Below, piece by piece: positions 4,609 to 45,887 of a stretch of DNA of 64,000 nt. The notes beneath the pieces were generated by a model, which saw only the letters and a program-made list of their open reading frames with translations, had not been told where the DNA came from and did not search any database. The first letter of the stretch is position 1; each line of letters starts with the position of its first letter. The position numbers and the translations under genes were made by a program. Source of the DNA: Burkholderiales bacterium (lineage in GTDB: Bacteria > Pseudomonadota > Gammaproteobacteria > Burkholderiales > Eutrophovitaceae); NCBI GenBank assembly GCA_035560005.1, contig DATMAN010000038.1:4009-68008 (forward strand), given 5' to 3'.

Positions 4609-5052
4609 TCAGTCTTCGACGGCCAGATCTTCCAGCTCCGCCCGCAATGCCTCGCTGCGCTCGCCGAGCGCTTCGTCCATCATCGGATAGAGCGCCTGCT
4701 CCTCCTTTATGTTGTGCTGCCGGAGCATGATGGCGAGCGTGTCGGAAAGCTCCAGGTAGGCCGCGGCATCGCGTCGTTCGAGCGTCTTCGCCAGGTCCAG
4801 CACCAGGTCGCGCATGTGCAGATGCTCGATGGACATGACCCGCGTCGGACCCATCTCCCCGCCGGTTTCTTCCTCGAAGGCGGGAAACAGGATCGTCTCC
4901 TCGGCCTCGAAGTGCCGTTCCAGCGCGCCACGGAACCGCGCGAAATGCGCCGCGCCGACCGTCCAGTCGCCCTGCGCGATCGCGGTCTCGGCATCCGCGA
5001 AGTGACGGTCGCAGGCACGGTGCATCTGCGTCATGAAATCACCGATCGCCAT
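4609..5052 (-). CDS. hemerythrin domain protein
   Basis: H/E-rich hemerythrin-type motifs (HFxAEE, EHLHMRD, QHNIKEE). Start uncertain: Met at 5052, alternatives at 5085 or 5034. Confidence 0.7.
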   Translation of the reverse strand: MAIGDFMTQMHRACDRHFADAETAIAQGDWTVGAAHFARFRGALERHFEAEETILFPAFEEETGGEMGPTRVMSIEHLHMRDLVLDLAKTLERRDAAAYLELSDTLAIMLRQHNIKEEQALYPMMDEALGERSEALRAELEDLAVED

Positions 5053-5112
5053 CCTCCGCTCCGGGCCGCCGCGAACACGCCCCATTCTGGAGACGGCGAA
5101 CCGGCGCCTTCC

Positions 5113-5835: not shown

Positions 5836-6113
5836 TCTAGAACCTATCTCAAAATCCCCGGCGGCCGCGGCGGGGTTGCCGGGGATGCAGCGCGAGGCGC
5901 GGCGAGGGGACCATTGGCCAGAGCCAAGGACCCGAGCCGCAACGACGCGCTGCGCCCCAAGTGACCCCGCCCCGAAGGGTTGCGACGATAAGCGGCCGTC
6001 TGCGTCGTTGGCGCGCTCGGTCGTAGGCTCAGCTACTGTCCTTCGCGCGCCGCCTCGCATCCGACCGCTTCTCGTCGCAACGCGACCGCCGGGGGTTTTG
6101 AGATAGGTTCTAG
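5836..6113. repeat. 278-bp nested inverted-repeat element (MITE-like)
   Basis: Termini CTAGAACCTATCTCAAAATCCCCGGCGG (5837..5863) and CCGCCGGGGGTTTTGAGATAGGTTCTAG (6086..6113) are 27-bp inverted repeats with 1 mismatch. An inner inverted pair GTTGCGACGATAAGCGGCCG / CCGACCGCTTCTCGTCGCAAC is also present. The right end covers the ctaA stop codon. Confidence 0.6.
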
Positions 6114-7135
6114 CCTTTGCGCAGCGCGTGGGCAAACCAGAGACTGGCGCCGAAGACGAGCACTGCACCGCCCTGATGCGCGGCGGCCAGCGGCACCGGG
6201 ACGACGAGCAGCAGCGTGCCGATGCCGAGCGCCACCTGGAGCGCGAGCAGAACGAGCAGGGTATTGGCGGCCAGCCGGGCACGATGCGGGAGCGCCGCCC
6301 GTCGCGACGCAAACCACAGCGCGGGCACCAGAAGGATGAGCAGCCAGGCGATCAGCCGGTGGTTGAACTGCACTGTTGCCATGTTGTTGAACAGATTCGC
6401 CCACCAGGGCTCCAGCATGAAGATCTCCGGCGGCACGAAGTGCCCGTTCATCAGCGGAAAGGTGTTGTAGGCATGTCCGGCGCGGATGCCCGCGACGAAG
6501 CCGCCGGAGAGCACCATCAGGAAGATCAGCGCCGTGAGTCCTGAGGCATGGCGCGCGAGCCTGCGCCGCGCGGGTGTGAGTACGGCGCGCGCCGGACAGA
6601 GCAGGTCGAGGGCGGTCCAGAGCATCGCCCCGAAGATCAGGAAGGCGAGCCCTAGGTGCGCCACGAGGCGGTACTGGCTGACCCGCGGGTCGTCGACCAG
6701 TCCGCTCATCACCATGTACCAGCCCATCCCGCCCTGCAGAGCGCCCAGAATGAAAATGCCTCCCAGCTTCCAAGCGAGCGGCCGCTCTATCCTTCGGCGC
6801 GCGAGAAACCAGACAAAAGGCACGAAGAACACCACCCCGATGGCGCGCCCCAGCAACCGGTGGATGTACTCCCACCAGAAGATTCCCTTGAACTCGTCGA
6901 GCGACATGTCCCTGTTGACCTTGCGGTACTGAGGCGTGGCCTGGTATTCCTCGAACAGCTCCTCCCAGTCCGATTGCGAAAGCGGCGGGATGGTCCCGAC
7001 CAGCGGTTCCCACTCCACGATGGACAGTCCGGACCCGGTCAGGCGGGTCACGCCCCCCACTACCACCATCGCGAACACCAGCGCGCAGCAGGCGAGCAGC
7101 CAGGCCGCGATTTGACGGCGATCAAACTCGGTCAT
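6110..7135 (-). CDS. ctaA: haem A synthase (COX15/CtaA family)
   Basis: ORF trimmed to [14 protein letters not shown]. Contains [25 protein letters not shown] and NHRLIAW His motifs typical of COX15. Confidence 0.8.
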
Positions 7136-7221
7136 TGTCCGGCTCCGATAGGCCAGGCGAGGTCGCATTCTATTCAGACACTTGCGCCGATGACAGCCCC
7201 GGTCCCGATGTCGGACGTTTC

Positions 7222-7235
7222 TTGATTCCGATCAA
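7222..7235. promoter_or_regulatory. FNR/Dnr-type box TTGATTCCGATCAA
   Basis: Perfect TTGAT-N4-ATCAA in the divergent ctaA / HCO-operon intergenic region. Confidence 0.6.
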
Positions 7236-7322: not shown

Positions 7323-7505
7323 ATGACCGATTCCACCAGAGCCACCTCGGCAGGGGGAGAAGAGTCCGGCCAGGAGCGGGTGCCCGTGATGCAGCAGATC
7401 CTGGACAACCCGTTCCTGCTGCTCTTCTTCGGCATCGCCATCCCGACCGTTTTCTACATCGTCTGGGGCGTGATGGAGATCGTCACGATCCCGATCGCCA
7501 AGTGA
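7323..7505 (+). CDS. small single-TM protein, candidate oxidase subunit IIa analogue
   Basis: 60 aa with a GAGGAG SD and C-terminal TM helix FLLLFFGIAIPTVFYIVWGVM. It occupies the same position as cbaD in ba3 operons (small-II-I). Confidence 0.5.
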   Translation: MTDSTRATSAGGEESGQERVPVMQQILDNPFLLLFFGIAIPTVFYIVWGVMEIVTIPIAK

Positions 7506-7533: not shown

Positions 7534-8082
7534 ATGAGCGCCATTCTGCCGCCGCCCAGCCGGGTCTGGTGGAAACAGCCGCTGGACCGCGTCGAGGGCA
7601 CCTGGATCGCGATCGCGTTCCTGTGGTGCCTGGTCATGTTCTTCATGATGCCGTACTGGCACGTGTTCGGAAAACAGAATCTGTCCAGCGAGGCCTACCG
7701 CACCACACCCGAGGCGTACAGCGCCAAGGCCCAGGCGATGGTAGACAAGTACACGGTGCGCACCGAGACCGAGCAGCAGATCCCGGTGGTGCATCCCCCC
7801 GCGGGCAGCGACGTCTACCTGATCGCGCGGCTGTGGTCGTGGTGGCCGATCCTCGAGCTGGAGAAGGGGCAGACCTACCGGCTGCACCTGTCGTCGATGG
7901 ATTACATGCACACGTTCTCGTTGCAACCGGAGAACATGAACATCCAGGTGATCCCCGGTTACGAAGGCGTGTACACCGTGACGCCCACGCGCGCCGGCAA
8001 ATACTCGGTGCTGTGCAACGAGTACTGCGGCATCGGCCATCACACGATGGTCTCCAATCTGTACGTCGTCGACAAGCCATAG
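7534..8082 (+). CDS. haem-copper oxidase-family subunit II with intact CuA site
   Basis: 182 aa, one N-terminal TM helix. CuA motif MHTF...CNEYCGIGHHTM fits H...CxExCGxxHxxM. Confidence 0.8.
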   Translation: MSAILPPPSRVWWKQPLDRVEGTWIAIAFLWCLVMFFMMPYWHVFGKQNLSSEAYRTTPEAYSAKAQAMVDKYTVRTETEQQIPVVHPPAGSDVYLIARLWSWWPILELEKGQTYRLHLSSMDYMHTFSLQPENMNIQVIPGYEGVYTVTPTRAGKYSVLCNEYCGIGHHTMVSNLYVVDKP

Positions 8083-8094
8083 CAGGGAGGGCAG

Positions 8095-9807
8095 ATGGCC
8101 ACCGTTTCCTTGTACCGAACCTGTCCGGACACCGGGCTGCAGTTCCACAAGTCCGCCGAGACGCTGATGAAGGCGCACGCGGTCGCGGCTGTGGTGTGGC
8201 TGCTCATCGGCGGGGTGCTCGCGCTGCTGGTCACGCTCACGCGCTGGCCGGCGGTGCGCCTGCTGGCCGCCGACCAGTTCTACATGACGCTCACCGCGCA
8301 CGGCATCGACATGCTCATCTTCTGGATCATCTTTTTCGAGATCGCGGTGCTGTACTTCTGCTCCTCCACCCTGCTGCGCAGCCGACTGGCCACGCCGCGC
8401 ATCGCCTGGCTCGGGTTCGCCCTGATGCTGATCGGCTCGATCGTGACCAACGTCGCGGTCTTTCAGGGCGCCTCCAGCGTGATGATGACCTCCTACGCGC
8501 CGATGCCGGCCCAGCCGCATTTCTATCTCGGGCTGATCCTGTTCGCGGTCGGCGCGCTGATCGGCTGCTTCGTCTTCCTCGGCACCCTGGTCGTGGCGCG
8601 CGCCGAGCGCACCTACGAGGGATCCATCCCGCTGGTGACTTTCGGCGCGCTCACCGCCGCCATCATCGCGATCTTCACCATCGCCTCCGGAGCGATCATC
8701 CTGATTCCGACTTTCCTCTGGTCCGTGGGTTACATCAGCCACATCGACCCGCTGATGTACAAGACCGTGTGGTGGGCTTTCGGGCACTCCTCGCAGCAGA
8801 TCAACGTTTCGGCGCACGTCGCCGTGTGGTATGCGATTGCGGCCATCGTGTTCGGCGCCAAGCCGATGTCGGAGAAGGTGAGTCGCAGCGCCTTCCTGCT
8901 CTACATCCTGTTCCTGCAACTGGCGAGCGCGCACCACGTCTTGGTCGATCCGGGCATCAGCTCCGAGTGGAAGGTCTTCAACACCAGCTACGCGATGTAC
9001 CTCGCGGTGCTGGCCAGCATGGTGCACGGGCTCACCGTCCCCGGTTCGATCGAGGTGGCCCAGCGGCAGAAGGGCTACAACCGTGGCCTGTTCGAGTGGA
9101 TCCGCAAGGCGCCGTGGGGCAACCCGGTGTTCTCGGGCATGTTCATCTCGCTTCTCGGTTTCGGCTTCCTGGGCGGAATTTCGGGCGTGATGATGGGAAC
9201 CGAGCAACTGAACATCATCATCCACAACACCGTCTACGTGCCAGGCCACTTCCACGCGACTGTGGTGGTGGGCACCACGCTGGCGTTCATGTCACTGACC
9301 TACTTCCTCATCCCGGTGCTGTTTCGCCGCCAGATGATCCTGCCGGGGCTCGCGAAGTGGCAGCCGTACATCTTCGGTATCGGCATGGCGCTGGTGGCGT
9401 TGTTTTTGATGGGTGCAGGAACATTGGGCGTGTCGCGACGGCACTGGGATATGGCGTTCACCGGCGCGGTGATGCCCTACGAGTATCCGGGCACGGCTTA
9501 CCTCATGATGGGCCTGATGGGTCTGTCGGGACTGCTGGCGATGGTGGGCGGGGCGATCTACATCTTCATCACGGTGGGATCGCTGTTGTGGGGCAAGCGT
9601 CTGGACGCGAAGGATGCCTACGGCGAGAAGATCAATCCGCTGCGCCTTCCGCCGGTGGCGGCCGCGATCGAGGGCCATGGCGGCCTCGGCATCCGCGGGT
9701 TCGCTGCGCCGGGCACCTTTGTCTTCGCGCTGGTGTTCCTGGTGGCGTTCGTCCTGTACTACTTCGTCAACTGGAAGTACCTGTCCCAGGTGTGGCTGAT
9801 CGGCTGA
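8095..9807 (+). CDS. haem-copper oxidase-superfamily subunit I, B-family-like, lacking the cross-linked Tyr (candidate eNOR/sNOR-type NO reductase)
   Basis: 570 aa. His69, His231, His280/281 and His385/387 mirror ba3 H72/H233/H282/H283/H384/H386. Helix VI reads WWAFGHSSQQ, so Gln235 (8797..8799) sits where ba3 has Tyr237. Confidence 0.8.
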   Translation: MATVSLYRTCPDTGLQFHKSAETLMKAHAVAAVVWLLIGGVLALLVTLTRWPAVRLLAADQFYMTLTAHGIDMLIFWIIFFEIAVLYFCSSTLLRSRLATPRIAWLGFALMLIGSIVTNVAVFQGASSVMMTSYAPMPAQPHFYLGLILFAVGALIGCFVFLGTLVVARAERTYEGSIPLVTFGALTAAIIAIFTIASGAIILIPTFLWSVGYISHIDPLMYKTVWWAFGHSSQQINVSAHVAVWYAIAAIVFGAKPMSEKVSRSAFLLYILFLQLASAHHVLVDPGISSEWKVFNTSYAMYLAVLASMVHGLTVPGSIEVAQRQKGYNRGLFEWIRKAPWGNPVFSGMFISLLGFGFLGGISGVMMGTEQLNIIIHNTVYVPGHFHATVVVGTTLAFMSLTYFLIPVLFRRQMILPGLAKWQPYIFGIGMALVALFLMGAGTLGVSRRHWDMAFTGAVMPYEYPGTAYLMMGLMGLSGLLAMVGGAIYIFITVGSLLWGKRLDAKDAYGEKINPLRLPPVAAAIEGHGGLGIRGFAAPGTFVFALVFLVAFVLYYFVNWKYLSQVWLIG

Positions 9808-9838: not shown

Positions 9839-10690
9839 GTGAGAGCGGTGTTCGGTCTGTTCAAGCTGCGGATCGGCGTCGTCATCACCTGGACCGCGCT
9901 GGCCGCGGTATCGATGACCGCGGGACCGGCGCTGTCGGCGTGGCAGATGCTCGTGCTCGGGCTGTCGGTGCTGGTGGCCTCCGCGTCGGCCGGGGCGTTC
10001 AATCAGTACGTGGAGCACGATCTCGACCGGCGCATGTCGCGCACTCGCGACCGGCCGTTCGTGACCGGGCAACTGGTGCACGACGCGCGCTGGATGTGGG
10101 TGATCATGGCGTTGCTGGCCGCTTCGGTCGCCGCCGCGGCCTATGCGTTGAATGCGCTCACCGCGCTCTATGTCTTTCTCGGCGCCTTCTTCTACGCGAT
10201 CGTCTATACCGTGTGGCTCAAGCGCCGCACGTGGCTCAACATCGTGATCGGCGGGCTCGCGGGCAGCTTCGCGGTGCTCGCCGGCGCCGCGGCGGCGGGC
10301 GACGCCTTGGATCCGCAACCGCTGCTGCTCGCGATCGTGCTCTTCCTGTGGACGCCATCGCACTTCTGGAGCCTGGCGATCGCCTACCGCGAAGACTACG
10401 TCGCGGCCGGCGTGCCGATGCTTCCGGCGGTGATCGGCAATGTGCGCAGCGCGCGCGTGATCTTCGGAAACACCGCCGCGCTCGTCGCCGTCTCCCTGCT
10501 ACCGGTGTTCTACGGCGCCGGCTGGATCTACTTCGCCGGCGCGGCGCTGGGCGGCGGCTGGTTCCTGTACAAGAGCTACCGGCTGATGCGCAATCCCTAT
10601 CGGCGCGAGGCGATGAAGGCGTTCTTCGCTTCGCTCGCCCAGCTCGCGCTGCTGCTTTCCGCCGCCATGCTAGAAGCCGCGCTTCGCTGA
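9839..10690 (+). CDS. ctaB: protohaem IX farnesyltransferase (haem O synthase)
   Basis: 283 aa, GTG start. UbiA-type motifs NQYVEHDLDRRMSRTRDRP and LFLWTPSHFWSLA. Confidence 0.85.
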   Translation: MRAVFGLFKLRIGVVITWTALAAVSMTAGPALSAWQMLVLGLSVLVASASAGAFNQYVEHDLDRRMSRTRDRPFVTGQLVHDARWMWVIMALLAASVAAAAYALNALTALYVFLGAFFYAIVYTVWLKRRTWLNIVIGGLAGSFAVLAGAAAAGDALDPQPLLLAIVLFLWTPSHFWSLAIAYREDYVAAGVPMLPAVIGNVRSARVIFGNTAALVAVSLLPVFYGAGWIYFAGAALGGGWFLYKSYRLMRNPYRREAMKAFFASLAQLALLLSAAMLEAALR

Positions 10691-10693
10691 GGA

Positions 10694-10855
10694 CTCATGC
10701 GCTCACCGCGGAGGACGCGGGGAAATGCAGACCGGAGATTCACCACAAAGACCCAAAGAGAGCAAAGGTCACGAAGGAAACAACAAGAAGTCTTCGTGCT
10801 CCTTTGTGTCTTGGTGCCTTCGTGCCCTGCCTTCGGAGTGCCCTCAGTGTTCGGC
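10694..10855. repeat. palindromic repeat element, copy 1 (right outer arm degenerate)
   Basis: Starts 4 nt after the ctaB stop with GCGCTCACCGCGGAGGACGCGGGG. Inner CACAAAG/CACGAAG-type arms pair with TCTTCGTGCTCCTTTGTGTCTTGGTGCCTTCGTGCC. Confidence 0.6.
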
Positions 10856-10864
10856 TATCTCGAC

Positions 10865-11650
10865 ATGGCCTGGCGTTCATTGATCGCTGTGGTGCTGGCG
10901 GCGATGCCGGCGCTGGCGGCGGCGCAGGCCACGGCGCCGGACACGGACCAGGCGCTTGCGCTGAGCCAGGCGGCGATCGGCGCGCAGGTCGACGACTACG
11001 CGCTCGTGCGCAGCGACGGTGGCAGCGTGCGCCTGTCGGAGTTCAGGGGCAAACCACTGCTCGTGCAGTTCATCTACACCGGATGCTTCCAGGCCTGCCC
11101 GGTGTCGGTGAGGTACCTGCAGCGCGCGGTCGCCACGGCGCGCGCGGCGCTCGGGCCGGATGCGTTCTCCGTTCTCACCGTAGGCTTCAACCAGCCATTC
11201 GACACCCCGCAGGCGATGGCGGCGTTCGCTCGCGAGCACGCAATCGAGGATCGGCGCTGGTACTTTCTCGCAACCGATACCCGGACCATTGCCGCTTTCA
11301 CCCGCACCTTGGGCTTTACCTGGTATGCGACGCCCAAAGGCTTCGATCACGTCGCCCAAGTCACGGTGCTCGACGCGCGGGGCCGTGTCTATCGCCAGAT
11401 CTACGGCGAGCGCTTCGAGGCGCCACTGCTGGTCGAGCCGCTCAAGCAGCTCATCACCGGCGCGCCGGTCGCGCAAGGAGACTGGCGCGCCTGGCTCGAG
11501 AAGGTGCGGCTGTTCTGCACGGTCTACGACCGTTCCAGCGGCCGCTACCGGCTCGATTATTCGCTGTTCATCGAGATCTTCGCCGGCCTGACCATCGCGA
11601 GCACCGTCATCTTCGGGTTGCTTCGCGAGTGGCGCCGCCAGCGCCGCTGA
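10865..11650 (+). CDS. SCO1/SenC family copper chaperone
   Basis: ORF 10697..11650 trimmed to MAWRSLIAVVLAAMPALAAAQA. Thioredoxin-fold CxxxC (YTGCFQACP) and a C-terminal TM helix. The upstream part of the ORF is repeat-derived. Confidence 0.75.
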   Translation: MAWRSLIAVVLAAMPALAAAQATAPDTDQALALSQAAIGAQVDDYALVRSDGGSVRLSEFRGKPLLVQFIYTGCFQACPVSVRYLQRAVATARAALGPDAFSVLTVGFNQPFDTPQAMAAFAREHAIEDRRWYFLATDTRTIAAFTRTLGFTWYATPKGFDHVAQVTVLDARGRVYRQIYGERFEAPLLVEPLKQLITGAPVAQGDWRAWLEKVRLFCTVYDRSSGRYRLDYSLFIEIFAGLTIASTVIFGLLREWRRQRR

Positions 11651-11653
11651 TCT

Positions 11654-11800
11654 GAAAGCTCTCACCTCGGAGGACGCAGAGGAAAGGCAGGAGGCACAAA
11701 GAGACAAAGGAGACCGACACGAGGCTTGATTGCCGTTTCCTGCTTCGTGTTTCGCTTTTGAGGTGTGCTCCGCGTCCCCCGCGTCCTCTGCGGTGAGTGC
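11654..11800. repeat. palindromic repeat element, copy 2
   Basis: GAAAGCTCTCACCTCGGAGGACGCAGAGG ... CCGCGTCCTCTGCGGTGAGTGC. Begins 4 nt after the SCO1 stop. Confidence 0.7.
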
Positions 11801-11826: not shown

Positions 11827-11840
11827 TTGATGCGAATCAA
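11827..11840. promoter_or_regulatory. FNR/Dnr-type box TTGATGCGAATCAA
   Basis: Perfect palindrome about 120 nt upstream of the cytochrome b-Fd-FNR gene. Confidence 0.55.
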
Positions 11841-11959
11841 ATGGGACCCGGGCATCCGCCGGTAGAGTGGTCCTGCGCGCGTTACGCGCGACCTATCGGC
11901 AGGCGAAGGAAGATGACTCCCGGCATTGCAGCGCCGCCCCGTCAGCAGGGGCGCAGCCG

Positions 11960-13846
11960 ATGACCCGCGGCATGCAGAAGGCGGGGCAGTGGCTGTTCCT
12001 GCGCGTGGAAGCCGGCTTCAACGCCTTCTTCGGCCAGGCCCTCAATCCGCTCTATCACCTGGGCGCGATCGGCTTCTTCCTGTTCTGGATCGCGCTCGCG
12101 AGCGGCTTGTACCTGTACGCATTTTTCGACACGGGCGTGACGGAAGCCTACGACTCGGTGGAAAAACTCACGCGCCAGTGGTACCTGGGCGGACTGATGC
12201 GCAGCCTGCACCGCTACGCCTCCGACGGCATGGTGCTGGTGATGATGCTGCACATGCTCCGGCACTTCGTGTTCGGTCGCTACCGCGATTTCCGCTGGTT
12301 CTCGTGGGCCACCGGGGTCGTGCTGCTGTGGCTCACCTACGCCTCGGGCATCAACGGCTATATGCTGCCCTGGGACCGTCTCGGCCAGTTCGTGGCCACC
12401 GCCACCGGCGAATGGCTCGACTGGTTCCCCATCTTCGCCGGCGAGGCAGCGCGCAACTTCGCCTTCCGCGGCAGCGTCAACGATCGCCTGTTCTCCCTGC
12501 TTTCGTTCCTGCATATCGGCATACCGCTCGCTGTGCTGATCCTCGCCTGGGTGCATACCCAGCGCGTTCCGCGGGCGCGCATCAACCCGCCGCGCGCGAT
12601 CTGGCTGCCGCTCGGGCTCGCGCTGGTCGTGCTCTCGCTCCTCAAGCCCGCGATGAGCCAGGGGCCGGCCGATCTCGCCGTGGTGCCCGCGACGCTGGCG
12701 CTCGACTGGTACTACCTGCCGCTCTATCCGCTGATCTACGAGTGGTCGCCCGGCGAAGTCTGGGCGCTGGCCTTCGGCGCGACGCTGCTGTTGTTTCTGG
12801 TGCCCTGGCTTCCGGCGCGCCGCGCGCGCGGCCATGAGCACCACGTCACCTTCCGTCCCGCCAATCTCTCCGCGACCGTGCGCGCGGGCGAGACGCTGCT
12901 GGAAGCCGGCTTGCGGCAGGGCATCGCGCTGCCTTACGACTGCCGTAACGGCGGCTGCGGCGTGTGCAAGGTGGCGATCGTGCACGGCCAGGTGGATCAC
13001 GGTCCCTACCAGAAGTCGGTGCTTTCCGACGAGGAGCGGGCGCGTGGAATGGCGCTGTTGTGCTGCGCGATCCCTCTTTCCGATCTGGACATCGAAGTGG
13101 AAACGGCCGCCTTGCCGAAGCGGGTGTGGGAGGCGACCGTCGTGCGCATGCAACGCGCGGCGCCCGAGGTCATGCTGCTGTGGCTGAGGCTCGATGGGTC
13201 TGAGCGCATCGAGTATCGCGCCGGGCAGTACATCAACATCCTTCTTCAGGACGGTGCCCGGCGCGCGTACTCCTTCGCCACGGCGCCCGGCGCCTCGGAT
13301 CTCATCGAACTGCACGTGCGGCGCATGCCCGGCGGGCGCTTCACCGGCTGGGTATTCGAGAAGATGCGGGTGGGCGACCGGCTGCGCTTCGAAGGACCGT
13401 TCGGAGCGTTCGTCCTCAACGAGGAAAGCCCGCGGCCGGTGATCTTCGTGGCCGGCGCCACCGGTTTCGCACCGGTGAAGAGCATGCTGGAAGACGCCTT
13501 CCGCAAGAACGTGCGCCGGCCGATGGTGCTCTACTGGGGCGTGCGCAGCCGGGAAGATCTCTACATGGCCGAACTTCCGGAACGCTGGGCACGCGAGCAC
13601 CCGAACTTCAGCTTCGTGCCGGTGCTCTCCGAGCCGAAGCCCGAAGACCACTGGCGCGGCCGCACGGGCCTGGTGCACGAGGCGATCCTGCAGGACTTCC
13701 CGACGCTGAAGGGTTACGAAGTGTATGCCTGCGGCTCGATGCAGATGGTCGAGGCGGCGCATCCCGAGTTCATCGCGCGCGGGCTGTCCGAGGATGCCTG
13801 CTTTTCCGACGCCTTTACCCCCGCGCCGGAGCCGGCGGCAACGTGA
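11960..13846 (+). CDS. fusion protein: di-haem cytochrome b + plant-type 2Fe-2S ferredoxin + FAD/NAD(P)H ferredoxin-reductase module
   Basis: N-terminus has the bc1-type cytochrome b pattern: HRYASDGMVLVMMLH and HIGIPLAVLILAWVH (His pairs 14 apart) and GYMLPWD. Middle has CRNGGCGVCK...LCC. C-terminus has RAYSFA (RxYS FAD motif) and VFVAGATGFAPV (NAD(P) binding). Confidence 0.75.
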   Translation: MTRGMQKAGQWLFLRVEAGFNAFFGQALNPLYHLGAIGFFLFWIALASGLYLYAFFDTGVTEAYDSVEKLTRQWYLGGLMRSLHRYASDGMVLVMMLHMLRHFVFGRYRDFRWFSWATGVVLLWLTYASGINGYMLPWDRLGQFVATATGEWLDWFPIFAGEAARNFAFRGSVNDRLFSLLSFLHIGIPLAVLILAWVHTQRVPRARINPPRAIWLPLGLALVVLSLLKPAMSQGPADLAVVPATLALDWYYLPLYPLIYEWSPGEVWALAFGATLLLFLVPWLPARRARGHEHHVTFRPANLSATVRAGETLLEAGLRQGIALPYDCRNGGCGVCKVAIVHGQVDHGPYQKSVLSDEERARGMALLCCAIPLSDLDIEVETAALPKRVWEATVVRMQRAAPEVMLLWLRLDGSERIEYRAGQYINILLQDGARRAYSFATAPGASDLIELHVRRMPGGRFTGWVFEKMRVGDRLRFEGPFGAFVLNEESPRPVIFVAGATGFAPVKSMLEDAFRKNVRRPMVLYWGVRSREDLYMAELPERWAREHPNFSFVPVLSEPKPEDHWRGRTGLVHEAILQDFPTLKGYEVYACGSMQMVEAAHPEFIARGLSEDACFSDAFTPAPEPAAT

Positions 13847-13858
13847 CCGGAGAATGAC

Positions 13859-14362
13859 ATGAACCCCATCGCCCGCGTCATCGGCCAGGTCGTGCTCTAC
13901 GGGCTGTTCGCCGCCGCGCTCGGCTATTTCTCCACCTCGCCCAACTACACGCATCTGGCACCCGACCAGGCCCTGGTCAAGGTCAGCTTCACGCACACCG
14001 CGCAGCACATCGGCGCGTGCCGCCGGCGCAGCGACGAAGAGCTGGCGAAGCTGCCGCCCAACATGCGCATCCGCGAGGAATGCCCGCGCGAGCGTGCGCC
14101 CACGCGCATCGAGCTGGAAATGGACGGCGCGCTGCTCTACAGCGACGTGTTGCAGCCTTCTGGACTGTCTCGCGACGGCGCGACGTCGGTGTACCGGCGC
14201 TTTCCGGTCCCGGCCGGCCGCCACCGCTTCGAAGCCAGGTTGTCGGACATCGCGAGCGGTGAGTTCAATCACCAGCGCGAAGAGTCGCTCGAGCTCGCGC
14301 CTGCCCAAATCCTGCTGGTCGACTTCGACGCGCGGGGCGAGGGGCTGGTTTTCAGACGCTGA
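13859..14362 (+). CDS. hypothetical protein with N-terminal TM anchor
   Basis: 167 aa, GGAGAA SD, TM helix VIGQVVLYGLFAAALGYF. Sits between the two cytochrome b genes. Confidence 0.5.
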   Translation: MNPIARVIGQVVLYGLFAAALGYFSTSPNYTHLAPDQALVKVSFTHTAQHIGACRRRSDEELAKLPPNMRIREECPRERAPTRIELEMDGALLYSDVLQPSGLSRDGATSVYRRFPVPAGRHRFEARLSDIASGEFNHQREESLELAPAQILLVDFDARGEGLVFRR

Positions 14363-14364
14363 CC

Positions 14365-15975
14365 ATGACCGCCGTTGCTCCCACCACCGCCGTTGCGATG
14401 CCGGCTGTGCGCCGCGCCGGCGAAACGCCGGGCCGTGCACAAATCCCCGCGCGCTCCCCGCAATGGTGGCGTGCGATGGAACGCGCAGTCGACGGCGTGA
14501 CCGGCGCGCGCCACAATCCGCTGCGAAACCTCGGCGCCCTCGGGTTCTACTTCTTCTGGATCGTTACCGCGAGCGGGGTCTATCTCTACGCTTTCTTCGA
14601 CACCAGCGTGACCGGTGCCTGGCAAAGCGTGGAGCGCATCACGCACGAGCAGTGGTACCTGGGCGGACTGATGCGCAGCCTGCACCGCTACGCCTCGGCC
14701 GGATTCTGCGTAGTCATGCTCGTGCATCTGTTGAAAGAGACGCTGTCGCGTCACTTCGGCGGCTTGCGTACATTCTCCTGGTTGACCGGCGTGCCGCTGA
14801 TCTGGCTCGCCTACGCCGCGGCGATCGGCGGCTACTGGCTGGTGTGGGACCGGCTCGCGCAGTTCTCCGCGACCGCGACCATGGAGTGGCTCGATGCGCT
14901 CGGCATCTTCGGGGAGCCGCTCGCGCGCAACTTCATCGCGCCCGACGCGGTCGACGACCGCCTCTTCTCGCTGCTGGTGTTCCTGCACATCGGCATTCCG
15001 CTGGCGCTGCTGCTCGGCATGTGGACGCACATCCAGCGCTTGAGCCACGCGGCAGTGTTGCCGTCGCGCCGGCTGGCGGCCTGCAGCTTCGCCGCGCTGC
15101 TGGCGGTGAGCGTGGTCCATCCGGCGCTCAGCCAGCCGCCCGCGGATCTCGCGCGCGTGCCTCGACAGCTCGGACTCGACTGGTTCTACATGTTCGTGCA
15201 TCCGCTCATGTATGAGACCTCCGCGGCCACCGTGTGGTGGCTGGCCGGCGCCGCGACCCTTCTGCTCGCGGCCCTGCCGCTCTTCGTGCGCGAGCCACGC
15301 GCACCGGCGGCGGTCGTCGATCCGCGCAACTGCAACGGTTGCGGGCGGTGCGTGGACGACTGCCCGTACGTGGCGATTACGCTCGTTCCCCATTCGATTA
15401 CCGGCGGACGGACATTGCAGGCGCTGGTCGATCCGGACCGCTGCGCGGCCTGTGGCATCTGTGTGGGCGCCTGTCCGTCTTCCACGCCGTTCCGTTCGGC
15501 GCGCGTGCTCGCCAGCGGAATCGAGCTGCCGCAGCTCACCGTGGATTCGCTGCGCGCGCGGCTGCGCGCCGCGCTCGCGCCCGCACCGGACCGCGCCCGC
15601 TACGTTGTCTTCGGTTGCGACTGCGCGGCCGAGGTCGCATCGCTGGCGAGCCGCGACGTCGCGGTCTTCGGCCTGCCGTGCGCCGGCATGCTGCCGCCGT
15701 CTTTCATTGCCTATGCCTTGCGGCTGGGCGCGCAGGGCGTGGTGGTGAGCACCTGCGGCGAAGGTGAGTGCGCCTACCGGCTCGGCGCCGAGTGGATCGA
15801 GCAGCGCATCAGCGCTCGGCGCGACCCGCGGCTGCGCCGCTCGGTGCCGCGCGATCGCGTGCGCCTGGTGCCGGCCGCGGGCGGCGAGTCCCGGCGCGTG
15901 GCCACGGAACTGGCGCTGCTGCGTGCGCATGCCGGCCAGCCGCAGCGCCTGGCGCGCCGAGGAGAAGCCGCATGA
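14365..15975 (+). CDS. fusion protein: di-haem cytochrome b + 2x[4Fe-4S] ferredoxin + MvhD/FlpD-like domain
   Basis: The cytochrome b domain is a paralogue of 11960..13846 (LHRYAS...MLVH, FLHIGIPLALLLGMWTH, GGYWLVWD). It is followed by CNGCGRCVDDCP and CAACGICVGACP, then VVFGCDC...LPCAGMLPPSFIAYALRLGAQGVVVSTCGEGECAYRLG resembling the MvhD delta-subunit domain. Start uncertain. Confidence 0.7.
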   Translation: MTAVAPTTAVAMPAVRRAGETPGRAQIPARSPQWWRAMERAVDGVTGARHNPLRNLGALGFYFFWIVTASGVYLYAFFDTSVTGAWQSVERITHEQWYLGGLMRSLHRYASAGFCVVMLVHLLKETLSRHFGGLRTFSWLTGVPLIWLAYAAAIGGYWLVWDRLAQFSATATMEWLDALGIFGEPLARNFIAPDAVDDRLFSLLVFLHIGIPLALLLGMWTHIQRLSHAAVLPSRRLAACSFAALLAVSVVHPALSQPPADLARVPRQLGLDWFYMFVHPLMYETSAATVWWLAGAATLLLAALPLFVREPRAPAAVVDPRNCNGCGRCVDDCPYVAITLVPHSITGGRTLQALVDPDRCAACGICVGACPSSTPFRSARVLASGIELPQLTVDSLRARLRAALAPAPDRARYVVFGCDCAAEVASLASRDVAVFGLPCAGMLPPSFIAYALRLGAQGVVVSTCGEGECAYRLGAEWIEQRISARRDPRLRRSVPRDRVRLVPAAGGESRRVATELALLRAHAGQPQRLARRGEAA

Positions 15976-17387
15976 AAATGCTTTCGCATTCCCCGGTCTC
16001 TCCAGCCTCCTGGAGCCTTCCCGGCGTTGACTACGCGCTCGCGGTCCCGCGCGACGCCCGCGCGCGGCTGGCCTTCGCCTGGCTGATGCTCGGTGTCGTC
16101 TCGCTGATCGCTGCGGGACTCTTCTCGGTGCTGCTGGTCGCTTCGCGCACGCCGTTGGTCCAGGGTTTCTTCCCGCTGGTCGATTTCTTTCACGTAGCGC
16201 TCGTGGTGCACGTCGACCTCTCGGTGCTGGTGTGGTTCAGCGCGTTTGCGGGCGTGTTCTGGAGTCTCAATTGCACCGTCGCCTGGCTGCCCGGTGGATG
16301 GACGGCGCTCGTGGTGTGCAGCGCGGGCGCGCTGGCGATGGCGGCCGCGGCCTTCGTTGGCGCGCCGCAGCCGATCATGAGCAACTACGTGCCGGTGCTG
16401 GACGGCGCGCTCTTCCTGGGAGGGCTCGCGGCCTTCGCCGTCGGCGCGGGTCTGCTCGTGCTGCGCGCAATGCGCGCGGTGCCGCGCGTGGGAACGGTGC
16501 TGGACGGGCAGGGCGCCTTGCGCTTTGCGCTCAACGCGGCGGCGGTGTCCGCCGCGATCGCACTCGGCGCGTTCTTCTGGTCCTGGCTGGAAGTGCCGGC
16601 GGCGCTCGAGGGCAAGGCCTACTACGAGCTGCTGTTCTGGGGCGGCGGCCATGTCCTGCAGTTCACGTGGACGCTGCTCATGTTCGCCGCGTGGCTGTGG
16701 CTCGCGTCCGAGTCGGGCTGCCCGCTGCCGCTCACGCCGCGCGTGGCGGTGCTGCTGTTCGGCATCGCGCTCGCCTCGGTGTTCGTCACGCCGATCATCT
16801 ATCTCGCCTGGGACGTCGCCTCGGTCGAGCACCATCGCCTGCTCACCTGGCTGATGCGTTTCGGCGGCGGGCTGACGATACTTCCCATCGGACTGGCGGT
16901 CATCTACGCGCTGTGGCGGGCAAGGGCGGGCACAGCGGGCCAGCAGGCGCTGCGTGCCGTGCTGGCGATGTCGGCCGTCCTGTTCGCCTTTGGCGGGCTG
17001 ATCGGGCTCACCATCGAGGGCTCGAACGTCAAGGTGCCCGCCCACTACCACGGCAGCATCGTCGGCGTCACCCTTGCCTTCATGGGCGTGGCTTACCTGT
17101 TGCTGCCGCGGCTGGGCTATTCGCGCGTGAACGCGCGCGCGGCGCGGGTCCAGGCCCGGCTCTACGGCGTGGGGCAGATGCTGCACATCACCGGCCTGGT
17201 CTGGTCGGGCGGCTACGGCGTGCAGCGCAAGGTAGCCGGCGCCGCGCAGGGGCTGGACGCGTTGGAGAAAGTGGCGGCGATGGGGCTGATGGGTTTCGGC
17301 GGACTGATCGCGGTGATCGGCGGAGTGATGTTCATCGTCATCGTGCTCAAGAGCGTTCTTCGCGGCCGCCAGCAAGCAGTCAACTGA
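15972..17387 (+). CDS. orphan, highly divergent haem-copper-oxidase subunit-I-like membrane protein
   Basis: ORF 15768..17387 trimmed to MKMLSH after a GGAGAAG SD, with an ATGA overlap on the upstream stop. About 12 TM helices. HCO-like His pattern: FFHVALVVH, FWGGGHVLQF (no Tyr), VEHHRL, FGGLIGL...PAHYH. Confidence 0.6.
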   Translation: MKMLSHSPVSPASWSLPGVDYALAVPRDARARLAFAWLMLGVVSLIAAGLFSVLLVASRTPLVQGFFPLVDFFHVALVVHVDLSVLVWFSAFAGVFWSLNCTVAWLPGGWTALVVCSAGALAMAAAAFVGAPQPIMSNYVPVLDGALFLGGLAAFAVGAGLLVLRAMRAVPRVGTVLDGQGALRFALNAAAVSAAIALGAFFWSWLEVPAALEGKAYYELLFWGGGHVLQFTWTLLMFAAWLWLASESGCPLPLTPRVAVLLFGIALASVFVTPIIYLAWDVASVEHHRLLTWLMRFGGGLTILPIGLAVIYALWRARAGTAGQQALRAVLAMSAVLFAFGGLIGLTIEGSNVKVPAHYHGSIVGVTLAFMGVAYLLLPRLGYSRVNARAARVQARLYGVGQMLHITGLVWSGGYGVQRKVAGAAQGLDALEKVAAMGLMGFGGLIAVIGGVMFIVIVLKSVLRGRQQAVN

Positions 17388-17576
17388 CGAGCTCTCACCG
17401 CGGAGGGCGCGGGGGGACACGGAAGAGGGAACCCTGTAAAGCACACCACCAGGGCACAAAGACACAAAGGAGCACGAAGAAAGCACATGAAGTTCTTCTT
17501 TGTGTATCTTCGTGGCTTCGTGCCTTTGTGGTGAATTCCCGATCTGTCCTTCCTCCGCGTCCTCAGCGGTGAGCAG
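17388..17576. repeat. palindromic repeat element, copy 3 (most complete long hairpin)
   Basis: CGAGCTCTCACCGCGGAGGGCGCGGGG...CACAAAGACACAAAGGAGCACGAAGAAAGCAC / TTCTTTGTGTATCTTCGTGGCTTCGTGCCTTTGTGGTG...CCTCCGCGTCCTCAGCGGTGAGCAG. Starts 1 nt after the stop codon. Confidence 0.75.
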
Positions 17577-17603: not shown

Positions 17604-18614
17604 ATGAATGTGGGCGCACTCGAACTGGTATGTCCAGCGGGAAACCTGGCCGCGCTGCAGGCGGCGGTGGACAATGGCGCGGACGCCGTGTACGTCGGCT
17701 TGCGCGACGGCACCAACGCGCGCAACTTCGCCGGTCTCAATTTCTCGCAGACCGAGCTCGAGCGCGCGGTGGCGCACGCGCACGCACGGGGCGCGAAAGT
17801 TTACGTCGCGATCAACACGTACGCCCAGCCCGACGCGGTCGAGCGCTGGTGCCGCGCGGTGGACTGCGCCGCCGACCTGGGCGCCGACGCGATCCTCGCC
17901 GCGGACATGGCGGTGCTCGACTATGCCGCGCGCAGCCGGCCGAGTCTGCACCGCCACCTGTCGGTGCAAGGCTCGGCCACGACCTACGAGGCGATCAATC
18001 TGTTCGTGCGCGAATTCGGCGTGAGCCGCGCGGTGCTGCCGCGGGTGCTGACTTTGGCGCAAGTCGCGCAGGTGGCGGCGAAGGCGCGCGCGGAGATCGA
18101 GGTTTTCGGATTCGGCAGCCTCTGCGTCATGGTCGAAGGGCGCTGCGCGCTCTCCTCCTATGTCACCGGCCAGTCGCCCAACACCGCGGGCGTGTGCTCC
18201 CCGGCCGCGGCGGTGCGCTGGCAGCAGGGTTCGCGGGGGCTGGAGTCGCGATTGAATGGCGTGCTGGTGGATTGCTACGCCGAGCACGAGCGCGCGGCTT
18301 ATCCCACCCTCTGCAAGGGCCGCTACGCGGTCGGCGAGCGCACCCGCTACGCCATCGAGGAACCGGCGAGCCTGAACACGCTGGAGCTGCTGCCCCGGCT
18401 CGCGGCCGCCGGCGTGAAAGCCGTGAAGATCGAAGGTCGCCAGCGCAGTGCCGCTTATGTCGCGGAAGTCACCCGGGTCTGGCGTGCGGCCATCGATGCC
18501 CTAGAGCGCGATCGGCAGCCATGGCGGCCGCGCGCCGACTGGCTCGCGCGCCTGGACGCGCTGGCCGAAGGCAGTCAGCACACCTTCGGCGCCTACGAGC
18601 GCCCCTGGAAATGA
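17604..18614 (+). CDS. ubiU: U32-family protein, O2-independent ubiquinone hydroxylation factor UbiU
   Basis: Peptidase U32 N-terminus [27 protein letters not shown]. Four-Cys region (CVMVEGRC...C...C). Followed by the ubiV and ubiT homologues. Confidence 0.7.
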
Positions 18615-18621
18615 GGTCAGC

Positions 18622-19515
18622 ATGAAGCTTGCGCTCGGACCGCTGCTCTACTACTGGCCGAAACAGCGCGTGCTGGAGTTCTACCGCGAGGTGGCAACTT
18701 CGCCCTGCGACATCGTCTATCTGGGCGAGGTTGTCTGCGCACGGCGGCACGAACTGCGGCTGCACGACTGGCTGGACATCGCGCACCGTCTCGCCGCTGC
18801 GGGCAAGGAGGTCGTGCTCAGCACCCAGGCGCTGCTGGAATCGGAATCGGACGTGAGATGGCAGCGCCGTATCGTCGCCAACGGCCGCTTCGCCGTCGAA
18901 GCCAACGACCTGTCCGCGGTCGCGCTGGCCACGCTGGCCGGCGTGCGCTTCGTGGCCGGACCGCACATCAACAGCTACAACGCCAGGACCCTCGAAATTC
19001 TGGCGCGCATGGGCGCCACGCGCTGGGTGATGCCGGTGGAGCTTTCCCGGGCGGCGCTGGAGCGCCTGCAGCGCGACCGCCCGCGCACACTGGAAACCGA
19101 GGTTTTCGTCCTGGGACGCCTGCCGCTGGCATTCTCCGCGCGCTGCTTCACCGCGCGCCACTACGAGCGCCGGCGCGATGATTGCGGTTTCGTCTGCCTC
19201 GAGCATCCGGACGGACTGCTGCTTTGCACGCAAGAAGGCAAGGCCTTCTTGCGGCTCAACGGCACGCAGACCCAGTCGGACGCGGTCTACAACCTGGTGC
19301 GCGAGCTGCCCGCGCTGCGCGCGCTGGAGGTGCATTCGGTCCGAGTCAGCCCCCGGGCTCAGCGCTGCGTGGAGTGGCTGCAGATCCTGCGCGACGCGAT
19401 CGATGGCCGGTTGCCCGCGACCGAAGCAGCGGCTCGCATCGAGTCGGCCGAGCCCGGCGGGACCTGCAACGGCTACTGGCACGCCCGCCCCGGCCTGCAG
19501 CGGGTGTGCATGTGA
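18622..19515 (+). CDS. ubiV: U32-family protein UbiV
   Basis: [13 protein letters not shown]... U32-like protein immediately after ubiU. Cys-rich [11 protein letters not shown]...CGFVC. Confidence 0.7.
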
Positions 19516-19964
19516 GCCCCCGGCGTCTGCCGGCGCTTCCCGCGCCCCTCGCGGCCCTTGCCGGCTTGCCGGGTGCGCTCGCGCTCGGCGTCGCGGTCAA
19601 CCTGGCGGCGGGCGCGCGCCTGCCCGAAGCCCTGGCACCGCTCATCGGCAAGACCGTCGCGTTGCGCGTGACCGATCTCGGGCTGGATCTGTGCGTTGCG
19701 ATCGGCGACCGCGGTTTTCGCGCGCGTCTCCGGCCGACCGCGCCGGACGCCACCATCTCGGCCTGTGCCGCCGACTTCGCCGCGCTCGCGCGGCGCAAGG
19801 TCGACCCGGATTCGCTGTTCTTTTCGCGCAGACTGGTCATCGAGGGCGACACCGAACTGGGTCTGGCCGTGAAGAACGCGCTCGACGCGCTGCCCCTTCC
19901 CCGGCTGCCCGACTTCGCTCCAGCCAGAGTGCTGGGTGCGTTGCGCGCCGGCCTGTTCGGCTGA
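19512..19964 (+). CDS. ubiT: SCP2-domain lipid-binding protein UbiT
   Basis: GTG start overlapping the ubiV stop (GTGA). The C-terminal [24 protein letters not shown] is an SCP2 signature. Confidence 0.65.
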
Positions 19965-31753: not shown

Positions 31754-31762
31754 AGCTCGCGT

Positions 31763-45067: not shown

Positions 45068-45194
45068 AATCCGGCCTGCGGTCGTTCGCGCCGGATCGAC
45101 TCCGCCGAGGAGGACCATGCGCGCGATTCCGGTTGCGCGCGGATCGCCGCATAATGACAGACGGACCGCGCGGGCTCGAAGCGTTGGAAGCAGC

Positions 45195-45887
45195 ATGCTG
45201 ACCGTTCCGATCAAGACTCAGGCTTTCCTGAACAATCTTCCGCTGTTCCGGGAGCTGGGCGCGGAAGAGATCGATCGCATCGCGTCTGGGACGCGCGAAG
45301 TGCGCGTCAAGCGCGGCGACGTGCTGTTTCAGAAGGGTGACCCCTGCCGCGGTTTCCACATCGTTGTCTACGGCCAGGTCAAACTTCTCTTCGTCACGCC
45401 GCAGGGCGACGAGAAGGTGATCGAGATCATGGGTCCCGGGCAGAGCTTCGGTGAGGCGGTGATGTTCCTCGAAAAGCCCTACGTCGTGACCGGTCAGGCG
45501 CTGACCGACTCGATGCTGCTGCACGTGGCCAAGGAAGTGGTGTTCGAGGAGATCGAGCGCGACCCGAAGTTCGCGCGGCGGGTGATCGCGGGGCTGAGCC
45601 GCCGGCTGCATCAGCTGGTGAGCGACGTAGAGGCCTACTCCCTGCGCTCGGCCGCGCAGCGCGTGATCGGCTATCTGCTGCGCCCCGATCACGAGCACGG
45701 CGATTCTGAACGATCGCTGGCGGTGACATTGCCTGCGAGCAAGTCGGTCATCGCTTCGCGGCTCAACATCACCCCAGAACATTTCTCGCGCGTACTGCAC
45801 GAGCTGACCGAGGCGCGCCTCATAGTGGTGGATGGCCGCACGGTGCGCATTCTCGACGTCGACCGGCTGCGCGCCTACGACGGCTAG
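45195..45887 (+). CDS. dnr: Crp/Fnr-family regulator without N-terminal Cys cluster (Dnr/NnrR type)
   Basis: cNMP-like domain LPLFRELGAEEIDRIA and a C-terminal HTH ITPEHFSRVLHEL carrying the E--SR recognition motif. No Fe-S Cys motif. Confidence 0.7.
   Translation: MLTVPIKTQAFLNNLPLFRELGAEEIDRIASGTREVRVKRGDVLFQKGDPCRGFHIVVYGQVKLLFVTPQGDEKVIEIMGPGQSFGEAVMFLEKPYVVTGQALTDSMLLHVAKEVVFEEIERDPKFARRVIAGLSRRLHQLVSDVEAYSLRSAAQRVIGYLLRPDHEHGDSERSLAVTLPASKSVIASRLNITPEHFSRVLHELTEARLIVVDGRTVRILDVDRLRAYDG

Follow-up and report, generated by a model that had tools for sequence, protein, structure and literature searches.

What is done by four genes that run in one direction behind a perfect FNR/Dnr-type operator box and encode, besides a small membrane protein, two large cytochrome b fusions and a relative of haem-copper oxidase (HCO) subunit I? 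The question is raised by a stretch of 64,000 nucleotides (nt) from a Burkholderiales bacterium of the family Eutrophovitaceae (GenBank assembly GCA_035560005.1, contig DATMAN010000038.1, positions 4,009 to 68,008 of the forward strand), which was analyzed as a whole and is called the window below. Judged from sequence and gene order, the four genes, designated g1 to g4, are the downstream half of a conserved unit built on an enzyme of the sNOR type, and they probably represent an undescribed part of nitric oxide (NO) handling by denitrifiers. sNOR is a predicted NO reductase type that is thought to account for a large share of environmental nitrous oxide and whose function and electron donors are unproven (PMC11214002, PMC6967387). 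The box and the four genes, with their lengths in amino acids (aa) and their transmembrane (TM) segments, are as follows.

11827..11840, unstranded: FNR/Dnr-type box TTGAT-N4-ATCAA = TTGATgcgaATCAA, read directly; its centre lies about 126 nt 5' of the g1 start codon
11960..13846, plus strand: g1, 628 aa, a fusion of cytochrome b, plant-type 2Fe-2S ferredoxin and flavin adenine dinucleotide (FAD)/NAD(P)H reductase
13859..14362, plus strand: g2, 167 aa, a single TM helix and a beta-sandwich domain
14365..15975, plus strand: g3, 536 aa, a cytochrome b with two 4Fe-4S motifs and an MvhD/FlpD-like Cys domain
15972..17387, plus strand: g4, 471 aa, a 12-TM HCO subunit-I-like protein

The genes g1 and g2 are separated by 12 nt and g2 and g3 by 2 nt, while g3 and g4 overlap by 4 nt in an ATGA; the perfect box ahead of four co-directional genes and the overlapping start of g4 had already been recorded in a first-pass annotation made from the letters alone, and both were present. 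Third-position G+C is high in the four open reading frames (ORFs), and dN/dS of the four genes, calculated against three relatives, is 0.1-0.35. By these measures g1 to g4 are real genes under purifying selection. The first-pass annotation had also considered that the fusion proteins might be frameshift or assembly artefacts; this origin was ruled out, because the fusions are found as full-length single tblastn matches in dozens of species and show the low dN/dS values given above.

Distribution and gene order

Using g4 as the query we recovered 7024 clusters at 90% identity, named 'cbb3-type cytochrome c oxidase subunit I', 'cytochrome c oxidase subunit I' or 'hypothetical'. A profile of the g4 family searched against 1.84 billion representatives returned 1692 proteins at E <=1e-3 and 767 at E <=1e-30. 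On this sequence comparison the family, which numbers at least 767 clusters at 50% identity, is discrete and stays apart from the ordinary oxidases. A scan of one genome per species confirmed at least 597 loci, mostly in Burkholderiales and Gammaproteobacteria, the carriers including Thiogranum, Acidiferrobacteraceae, Thiohalobacter, Competibacteraceae and the isolate Quisquiliibacterium transsilvanicum DSM 29781. A tblastn search of plasmid records with g4 found nothing.

Gene order was compared across 42 loci with full flanks, to which the synteny counts in this report refer, and the expectation that the four genes would be syntenic in other genomes was borne out. The genes were present in these loci as follows.

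g2: 41 of 42 loci, sometimes duplicated
sNOR-type subunit I: 40 of 42 loci
SCO: 40 of 42 loci
g3: 38 of 42 loci
g1 (as the fusion): 35 of 42 loci

The commonest order is cox2-cox1-ctaB-sco-g1-g2-g3-g4. Variants include the order g3-g2-g4-g1, duplication of g2, a divergent g1 upstream and loss of g3. In loci L084, L085 (Ca. Methylomirabilis), L088 (Sulfuricaulis) and L089 (a metagenome contig), sNOR-type genes are followed by SCO, g3, g2 and g4; L085, L088 and L089 have a hemerythrin gene between g3 and g2, and in L088 and L089 the cluster adjoins NosR-like and nirS genes. Two NIR_SIR (sirohaem nitrite/sulfite reductase-like) genes were also seen 3' of g4 in L085 (6557-8894), L088 (11604-14038) and L089 (11677-14014). 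They are followed by a NosR-like gene and nirS in L088 and L089, and L085 ends inside an FMN_bind gene.

The module had first been described as self-contained and g4 as an orphan. Neither description survives the comparison: the module is a conserved extension of an sNOR-type operon, present in 40 of the 42 fully flanked relatives, and a CuA subunit II and a subunit I, the latter a paralogue of g4, are encoded at 7534-9807, about 4-8 kb upstream on the same strand. Every domain of the module can be assigned to a known family, and the enzyme to which the unit is anchored is of a known, if uncharacterized, type. The suggestion that the architecture had not been described stood in so far as we found no publication on it: searches for the g4 family, g2 and both cytochrome b fusions found no description in the searchable literature, and since much of the literature cannot be searched this is absence of evidence only.

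The sNOR-type enzyme upstream

The upstream half of the unit and the haem A synthase gene that diverges from it are laid out as follows.

6110..7168, minus strand: haem A synthase CtaA (Pfam COX15-CtaA, 386 bits), transcribed away from the operon; a perfect FNR-type box at 7222-7235 separates the two
7323..7505, plus strand: small 60-aa single-TM ORF preceding subunit II, in the position of ba3 subunit IIa
7534..8082, plus strand: subunit II, NorS-like, with a complete CuA motif (H...CNEYCGIGHHTM; Pfam COX2, motif read directly)
8095..9807, plus strand: B-family-like HCO subunit I, 570 aa, without the cross-link Tyr (GHSSQQ; Pfam COX1, 229 bits)
9839..10690, plus strand: haem O synthase CtaB (TIGR01473, 262 bits, over the cut-off)
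10865..11650, plus strand: SCO1/SenC copper chaperone (Pfam SCO1-SenC); the longest ORF begins at 10697, inside a repeat copy

The upstream subunit I matches that of the Thermus ba3 oxidase at E 5e-47, with ba3 Tyr237 aligned to Gln and the His pair and HxH motif kept. With the syntenic subunit I of Ca. Methylomirabilis it shares 70% identity and the motifs GHSSQQ, HH and HFH. The sNOR type comprises norS, norY and senC, and its subunit I is derived from the B family and lacks the Tyr (PMC11214002, PMC4940428, PMC6967387). One sNOR and one gNOR have been reported for the genus Ca. Methylomirabilis (PMC6094997), and in gNOR an active-site His is replaced (PMC11214002). A Tyr-less B-family-related subunit I, a CuA subunit II and an adjacent SenC are all found upstream of the module. 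The enzyme at 8095..9807 therefore appears to be of the sNOR (NorY) type, because its motifs fit, because it is 70% identical to a gene of a genus with one sNOR and one gNOR, and because the gNOR has its His replaced. Described sNOR clusters (norSY-senC-orf1, from ammonia oxidisers and Ca. Methylomirabilis; PMC11214002, PMC4940428, PMC6094997) agree with the cluster type found here in the upstream CuA subunit II, the Tyr-less subunit I and SenC/SCO, and the accessible descriptions make no mention of cytochrome b fusions, of g2 or of a second subunit-I-like gene.

Genes of 51-59 aa occupy the position of the 60-aa ORF in L001, L082, L083, L084, L088 and L089, and this ORF probably encodes a small subunit of the sNOR-type enzyme that resembles subunit IIa. 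Relatives of the SCO protein align only from residue 90; its true start is probably M57, at about 10865, because the repeat copy at 10702 lengthens the apparent ORF upstream.

g4, a diverged relative of subunit I

The protein encoded by g4 is a strongly diverged duplicate (paralogue) of the B-family/sNOR-type subunit I. Its match to the COX1 profile, one of the checks first proposed, was full-length and significant (E 1.5e-8, 34.4 bits, whole profile covered) but fell 0.4 bits short of the gathering score of 34.8. No match was found in NCBIfam, and a profile of g4 relatives searched against PDB sequences returned nothing at E up to 1. BLASTP against the window's subunit I (8095..9807) gave 27% identity over the whole length (E 1e-17), and the profile-profile comparison with hhalign gave a probability of 99.4% and E 3.7e-21. 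An AlphaFold2 (AF2) model with 13 long helices (predicted local distance difference test, pLDDT, 78; predicted template modeling score, pTM, 0.85) had as its best Foldseek match the Thermus ba3 subunit I (PDB 3s8f; E 2e-8, TM-score 0.70), and HCO subunit I chains filled the top 50 throughout. The HCO subunit I fold that had been proposed for g4 is thus upheld, and its kinship was revealed by profile-profile and fold comparison, not by the PDB sequence search.

When the conserved residues were placed on the model, H80 was found in helix II, H227 in helix VI and H358/H360 at the start of helix X, in agreement with the earlier assignment of the histidines to helices II, VI, VII and X, except that H287/H288 fall in the loop right after helix VII. 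The CuB His pair of known oxidases also sits just after helix VII. H80, H360 and H358 align with the low-spin and high-spin haem ligands of the window's subunit I. H80, H227, H358, H360, H405, R419 and K420 are invariant in 82 close relatives, among which position 287 is His in 80 and position 288 is His in 29, being otherwise Y, R, I or Q. In 151 wider representatives, which stand for the whole g4 family at the 50% identity level, the haem ligands, H227, W223, G226, Q230, E219, R419 and K420 are near-invariant, and the metal-B positions vary (H, F, Y, R, I). The g4 of this window has both H287 and H288.

The position of the helix-VI Tyr is taken by F231 in the motif GGGHVLQF, as the first-pass annotation had stated. 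The HCO oxygen reductases have their cross-linked active-site Tyr on helix VI or, in the C family, on helix VII. In g4, Y277 in helix VII is invariant in the 82-sequence clade and is Tyr in 85 of the 151 family representatives. Q230 occupies the position of ba3 V236, where the neighboring sNOR-type subunit I also has Gln, and the invariant Y139 aligns with ba3 Y136. R419/K420 align with an RR pair of cox1 that matches the RR of ba3, which we take to be the haem-propionate arginines. There is no COX2 or cytochrome c gene that forms a pair with g4, which leaves it with no electron-entry subunit of its own. From this conservation the g4 family appears to keep two haem sites and a conserved distal pocket, and a three-His metal-B site is not a property of the family. 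The variability of the metal-B positions argues for loss of the site rather than its remodeling. The haems themselves are predicted to be O or A, probably so because CtaA and CtaB are linked.

These features set g4 apart from its nearest known counterparts. With the ba3 subunit I of Thermus thermophilus (PDB 3s8f) it shares the 12-helix fold, the aligned haem ligands and the presumed haem-propionate Arg pair, but it has Phe for Tyr237 and no subunit II, and its family misses one or both of the helix-VII histidines. The sNOR subunit I and g4 are paralogues with a common Gln at the ba3 V236 position; g4 departs from sNOR in lacking its own CuA partner, in having Phe at the Tyr position and in not conserving the His pair. 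gNOR and NOD (PMC11214002) are likewise HCO members in which an active-site His is replaced and a new catalytic role has been proposed, but their replacement is a specific conserved residue, whereas the g4 positions are variable.

The cytochrome b fusions g1 and g3

Domain searches agreed with the composition first read from the motifs of both fusions. The product of g1 matched Pfam Cytochrome_B (82 bits), Fer2 (62 bits), FAD_binding_6 (51 bits) and NAD_binding_1 (84 bits), the last three over their cut-offs. Its haem ligands are H84/H98 and H186/H200, 14 apart, and the motifs GYMLPWD, RAYSFA and GATGFAP can be read in it. The product of g3 matched Cytochrome_B (65 bits), two Fer4 motifs and FlpD (48 bits; 47.8 against a cut-off of 22.3), and contains two CxxCxxCxxxCP motifs and four conserved Cys in the FlpD/MvhD-like domain. 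In both proteins the cytochrome b domain is 6-TM and di-haem and over the Pfam cut-off, and the two domains are paralogous, being 55% identical (E 6e-91). The four haem-ligand His (helices B and D, 14 apart) are kept in 52 sequences each of g1 and of g3, the Cys motifs are conserved in both, and g1 keeps the 2Fe-2S, RxYS FAD and GxGxxP NAD(P) motifs. Two extra helices in g1 and g3 carry a PEWY-like xDWY/F motif (ALDWYYLP and GLDWFYMF).

The closest solved structure to the haem domain of g1 is cytochrome b6 (E 1.7e-23). The reductase half resembles Fer2-FNR modules of the BenC/MmoC/NqrF type, and since every NCBIfam equivalog model scored below its cut-off, g1 does not by sequence belong to any named Fer2-FNR enzyme family. 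From the homology with bc1 and b6f topology and from their six helices, the C-terminal domains of g1 and g3 are predicted to be cytoplasmic, beside the inner haem. No Rieske gene and no gene for cytochrome c, c1 or f was found in the loci that were listed gene by gene, and a conventional bc-type Q cycle was rejected as unlikely because these partners are missing there. No Hdr or Mvh gene lies nearby in the window or in the Burkholderiales-type loci listed gene by gene.

The closest published relatives of the fusion idea are the cytochrome b-anchored NAD(P)/FeS oxidoreductases, covered together with cytochrome b 'subfamily H', a group of large proteins with cytochrome b domains and of unknown function (PMC5600118). 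In these, as in g1 and g3, a bc-type di-haem cytochrome b anchors cytoplasmic flavin or iron-sulfur (FeS) modules. g1 and g3 differ in that the modules are covalently fused, that they form a paralogous pair, that they have no Rieske partners and that they are tied to an HCO operon.

Two further observations concern these genes. A 53-nt stretch at 12176-12228 in g1 and 14650-14702 in g3 is 96% identical at the DNA level, well over the approximately 55% protein identity, which suggests recent gene conversion between them. In addition, g1 in L001 (5877-7813) and L081 (903-2788) and g3 in L001 (8408-10008) are each broken at the domain junction into two overlapping ORFs; such splits may be frameshift errors in those metagenome-assembled genomes or natural split forms.

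The small membrane protein g2

No family in Pfam or NCBIfam matched g2, and its own family consists of 1763 clusters, every one named 'hypothetical'. The AF2 model (pLDDT 92.8) has one TM helix and a beta-sandwich, in keeping with the small TM protein that had been called from the letters. H46, C54, M69 and C75 are invariant and H122 is kept in at least 90% of the sequences, and these His, Cys and Met residues hint at a metal or disulfide site. Foldseek returned generic immunoglobulin-like or carbohydrate-binding-module sandwiches, with a best E of 1e-3 and TM-scores below 0.4. The size of g2 and its single TM helix are those of a ba3 subunit II, and we therefore considered it as a cryptic cupredoxin subunit II; this was not supported, as Foldseek gave no significant cupredoxin match.

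Operator-type boxes, repeats and neighboring genes

The window contains 12 boxes of the FNR/Dnr type at no more than one mismatch, against 0.43 expected by chance. Seven of these have one mismatch and five are perfect, the latter lying at the hemerythrin gene (5113), between ctaA and the oxidase operon (7222), at g1 (11827), at nrdD (22254) and between nirS and nirE (44089). In about 30 related loci, equivalent FNR-type boxes were found 5' of whichever module gene comes first, and also in the ctaA/cox2 intergenic region. From the presence of the boxes, their enrichment and their recurrence at orthologous positions, the g1-g4 unit is predicted to be FNR/Dnr-controlled. The features that bear on regulation, and the repeats on either side of the module, are as follows.

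45117..45887, plus strand: Crp/FNR-family regulator (Pfam cNMP_binding and HTH_Crp_2), adjoining the nirS cluster, a candidate binder of the boxes
4609..5085, minus strand: hemerythrin-domain protein, with a perfect FNR-type box at 5113-5126; hemerythrin recurs in or beside the module in other lineages
11661..11797, unstranded: repeat like a miniature inverted-repeat transposable element (MITE), whose inverted ends are 19 nt long; it lies between SCO and the box
17394..17573, unstranded: MITE-like repeat of the same family as the 11661..11797 element, directly 3' of g4

The repeats that had been seen to bracket the module are thus MITE-like. The family, which also resembles repetitive extragenic palindromic (REP) elements, has the 19-nt inverted ends CCGCGTCCTCNGCGGTGAG, of which 7 were observed against 0.37 expected by chance. 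Copies at 10702-10720, 11661-11797, 17394-17573, 24419-24437 and 28893-28911 are intergenic insertions 3' of ctaB, sco, g4, nrdD and nnrS.

Downstream of g4 are genes for UbiU, UbiV, UbiT, a MASE1 protein, NrdD, two radical-SAM proteins and NnrS, and further on the nirS cluster. The denitrification context on which the first-pass annotation had relied, given by the nirS cluster, NnrS and the Crp/FNR regulator, is confirmed, and hemerythrin and the anaerobic ribonucleotide reductase extend it to an anaerobic one. UbiU and UbiV (two peptidase U32 genes) and a UbiT-like SCP2 protein are encoded directly 3' of the module at 17604-19964. UbiU, UbiV and UbiT act in O2-independent ubiquinone biosynthesis. 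Their membership of the unit was considered and ruled out, the linkage being found in just 2 of the 42 loci. Further genes of the anaerobic island, at 24629-26497, 29717-30916 and 31250-33713, encode a B12-binding radical-SAM protein with DUF4070, a radical-SAM/SPASM protein, a small protein with a weak Urate_ox_N match, a class-V aminotransferase-like protein and a DHO_dh-like protein.

Proposed function and rival explanations

The reading that we prefer, and hold tentatively, is that g1 to g4 form an FNR/Dnr-controlled accessory chain which would deliver cytoplasmic reductant, by way of FAD, FeS clusters and b haems, either to the g4 haems or to the sNOR-type enzyme for the turnover of NO or trace O2. 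Reductant would enter on the cytoplasmic side through g1, from NAD(P)H to FAD and on to the 2Fe-2S cluster, and through the FeS clusters of g3, for which the donor would be ferredoxin-like or a protein partner. Electrons would then traverse the membrane by way of the b haems of g1 and g3 and, within a membrane complex in which g2 would be a membrane-anchored partner, would arrive first at the low-spin and next at the high-spin haem of g4, or else at the neighboring sNOR. NO or trace O2 would be reduced at one of these two places. For its part g4 would retain the low-spin and high-spin haem, the Tyr having been lost and, family-wide, two of the three CuB histidines. Such a chain would be induced under anoxic, NO-generating conditions and would be, in logic, the membrane counterpart of NAD(P)H-driven NO detoxification of the flavohaemoglobin/NorVW type. 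The formation of a complex, the direction of the electrons, the substrate and the types of cofactor are what we infer in this scheme. In Hmp, NorVW and the NOX/ferric-reductase (FRE) enzymes an FNR-like NAD(P)H/FAD module feeds an NO- or O2-handling haem, by a path through two transmembrane b haems in NOX/FRE. g1 differs from all of these in its unrelated haem domains, its added 2Fe-2S ferredoxin and its bc-type cytochrome b, and the likeness is in logic only.

Coupling of the parts is supported by a natural fusion of cytochrome b with g4 on two metagenome contigs, by the strict linkage of g2, g3 and g4 in the sNOR context and by the NO-related neighbors. For g1, outward flow would be the only thermodynamically sensible direction, because transfer from quinol to NAD(P)+ is strongly uphill.

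Several points weigh against the proposed chain. Membrane potential would be wasted if electrons moved outward from NAD(P)H, and the cytochrome b-g4 fusion was seen on those two contigs only. A Thermodesulfovibrionales genome has a g4 relative after a COX2(cytochrome c)-COX1-CtaB operon with no cytochrome b, and on two further contigs a lone g4 relative lies beside an aa3-type cluster with CtaA, CtaB, Surf1 and CtaG; the aa3-type and caa3-like operons beside such relatives have no cytochrome b fusion close by. There is a g4-UbiA (CtaB) fusion (P0355), and g4 is fused to a TM segment and tetratricopeptide repeats (TPR) in four separate 50% clusters (P0251, P0283, P0333, P0372), the C-terminal TPR domain showing a weak match to the CcmH/CycH TPR family; both kinds of fusion suit biogenesis at least as well as catalysis. 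Finally, the six-His pattern from which the first-pass annotation had deduced a binuclear centre is present in this g4 but is not conserved: in the 151 wider representatives H287 is His in 49, and 86 have no His anywhere in the segment of the helix-VII pair. Given these figures and the low conservation of H288 among the close relatives (29 of 82), a canonical CuB/FeB binuclear NO- or O2-reducing centre in g4 is doubtful on sequence grounds. A classical catalytic role of g4 is weakened by the degenerate metal-B site, by the lone relatives beside aa3 operons and by the CtaB and TPR fusions. It is conceivable, although we would not expect it, that g4 represents a branch without a copper or iron B site that is devoted to haem-only gas handling and acts in the sNOR context as an NAD(P)H-driven NO/O2 reductase, or else that the set is an anoxic system for haem A/O maturation.

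The main rival to the accessory chain, which we judge rather unlikely, is that g4 is a biogenesis or haem-handling factor, a mimic of subunit I that takes haem O or A from CtaB/CtaA; in the sNOR context g1, g3 and g2 would then give reducing power for anoxic maturation, for example for haem A formation or Cu(II) reduction. There are analogies in the FeS protein CcoG and the single-TM CcoH of cbb3 assembly, and in the need of eukaryotic Cox15 for ferredoxin and ferredoxin reductase. CtaA and/or CtaB adjoin g4-family genes in every lineage examined, including the aa3-type clusters with Surf1 and CtaG, but any protein dependent on haem O or A would be expected to show such linkage just as much. 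The g4-UbiA fusion and the several TPR fusions would suit a biogenesis factor, as would the lack of a conserved CuB His pair in the family and the one or two SCO genes in the unit (in the window and the loci listed gene by gene). However, the redox-cofactor ligands and the pocket residues W223, G226, H227, Q230, R419 and K420 are near-invariant across deep divergence, which is more enzyme-like than chaperone-like, and no known assembly factor has a complete subunit I fold. Under a second alternative, which we regard as improbable, the cytochrome b fusions serve the upstream sNOR, either in place of a cytochrome c or cupredoxin donor or as a link to the quinone pool through the Qo-like xDWY/F motif, with g4 and g2 as additional subunits, without catalytic function, in an sNOR supercomplex. 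This would explain why g1, g2 and g3 are confined to the sNOR-type context and are not found beside the aa3-linked g4 relatives, and it fits the lack of a c-type cytochrome gene in the unit (in loci listed gene by gene) and the conserved PEWY-like motif of both cytochromes b. The presence of UbiU, UbiV and UbiT directly downstream would point the same way, but they are linked in only the two loci mentioned above. The CuA site moreover is periplasmic, and the b haems have no known route to it in the absence of a Rieske or c-type carrier, and all haem ligands are kept in g4, which would be needless in an inert subunit.

Flow in the inward direction has also been weighed and seems very improbable. 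Here the cytochromes b would oxidise quinol on their periplasmic side and pass electrons to the cytoplasmic FeS domains, as in a redox loop of the NarI/HdrE type, and from there to a cytoplasmic reductase for which the NIR_SIR pair are candidates; the NIR_SIR proteins are a possible cytoplasmic partner of the g3 FeS domains. The combination of a di-haem cytochrome b anchor with FeS subunits in the cytoplasm is well established, cytochrome b-anchored oxidoreductases having been discussed before (PMC5600118), and the two NIR_SIR genes do lie 3' of g4 in the three loci L085, L088 and L089. Yet no NIR_SIR gene occurs in or beside the unit in the window (among ORFs of at least 100 aa) or in the three Burkholderiales-type loci listed gene by gene, and the end acceptor of g1 would be NAD(P)+, strongly uphill from quinol.

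Implications

Genes of the sNOR type come with a conserved module in hundreds of species of Burkholderiales and Gammaproteobacteria and in Ca. Methylomirabilis, and models of sNOR physiology that ignore this module are incomplete. Inventories of denitrification drawn from genomes could miscount the module proteins, because the only annotations these carry are 'cbb3-type cytochrome c oxidase subunit I' or 'hypothetical'. The fusions provide a new connection of cytoplasmic NAD(P)H to a bc-type cytochrome b, and the g4 family is a natural experiment on the oxidase haem scaffold without copper. Should the set prove to be an anoxic maturation system, it would bear on how denitrifiers assemble haem-A enzymes without O2. 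If instead the haem-only reading of g4 is correct, its family would be an unrecognized branch of the HCO superfamily, and in the sNOR context its direct connection to cytoplasmic NAD(P)H through the cytochrome b fusions would yield a new type of NO (or O2) reductase, embedded in the membrane and driven by NAD(P)H.

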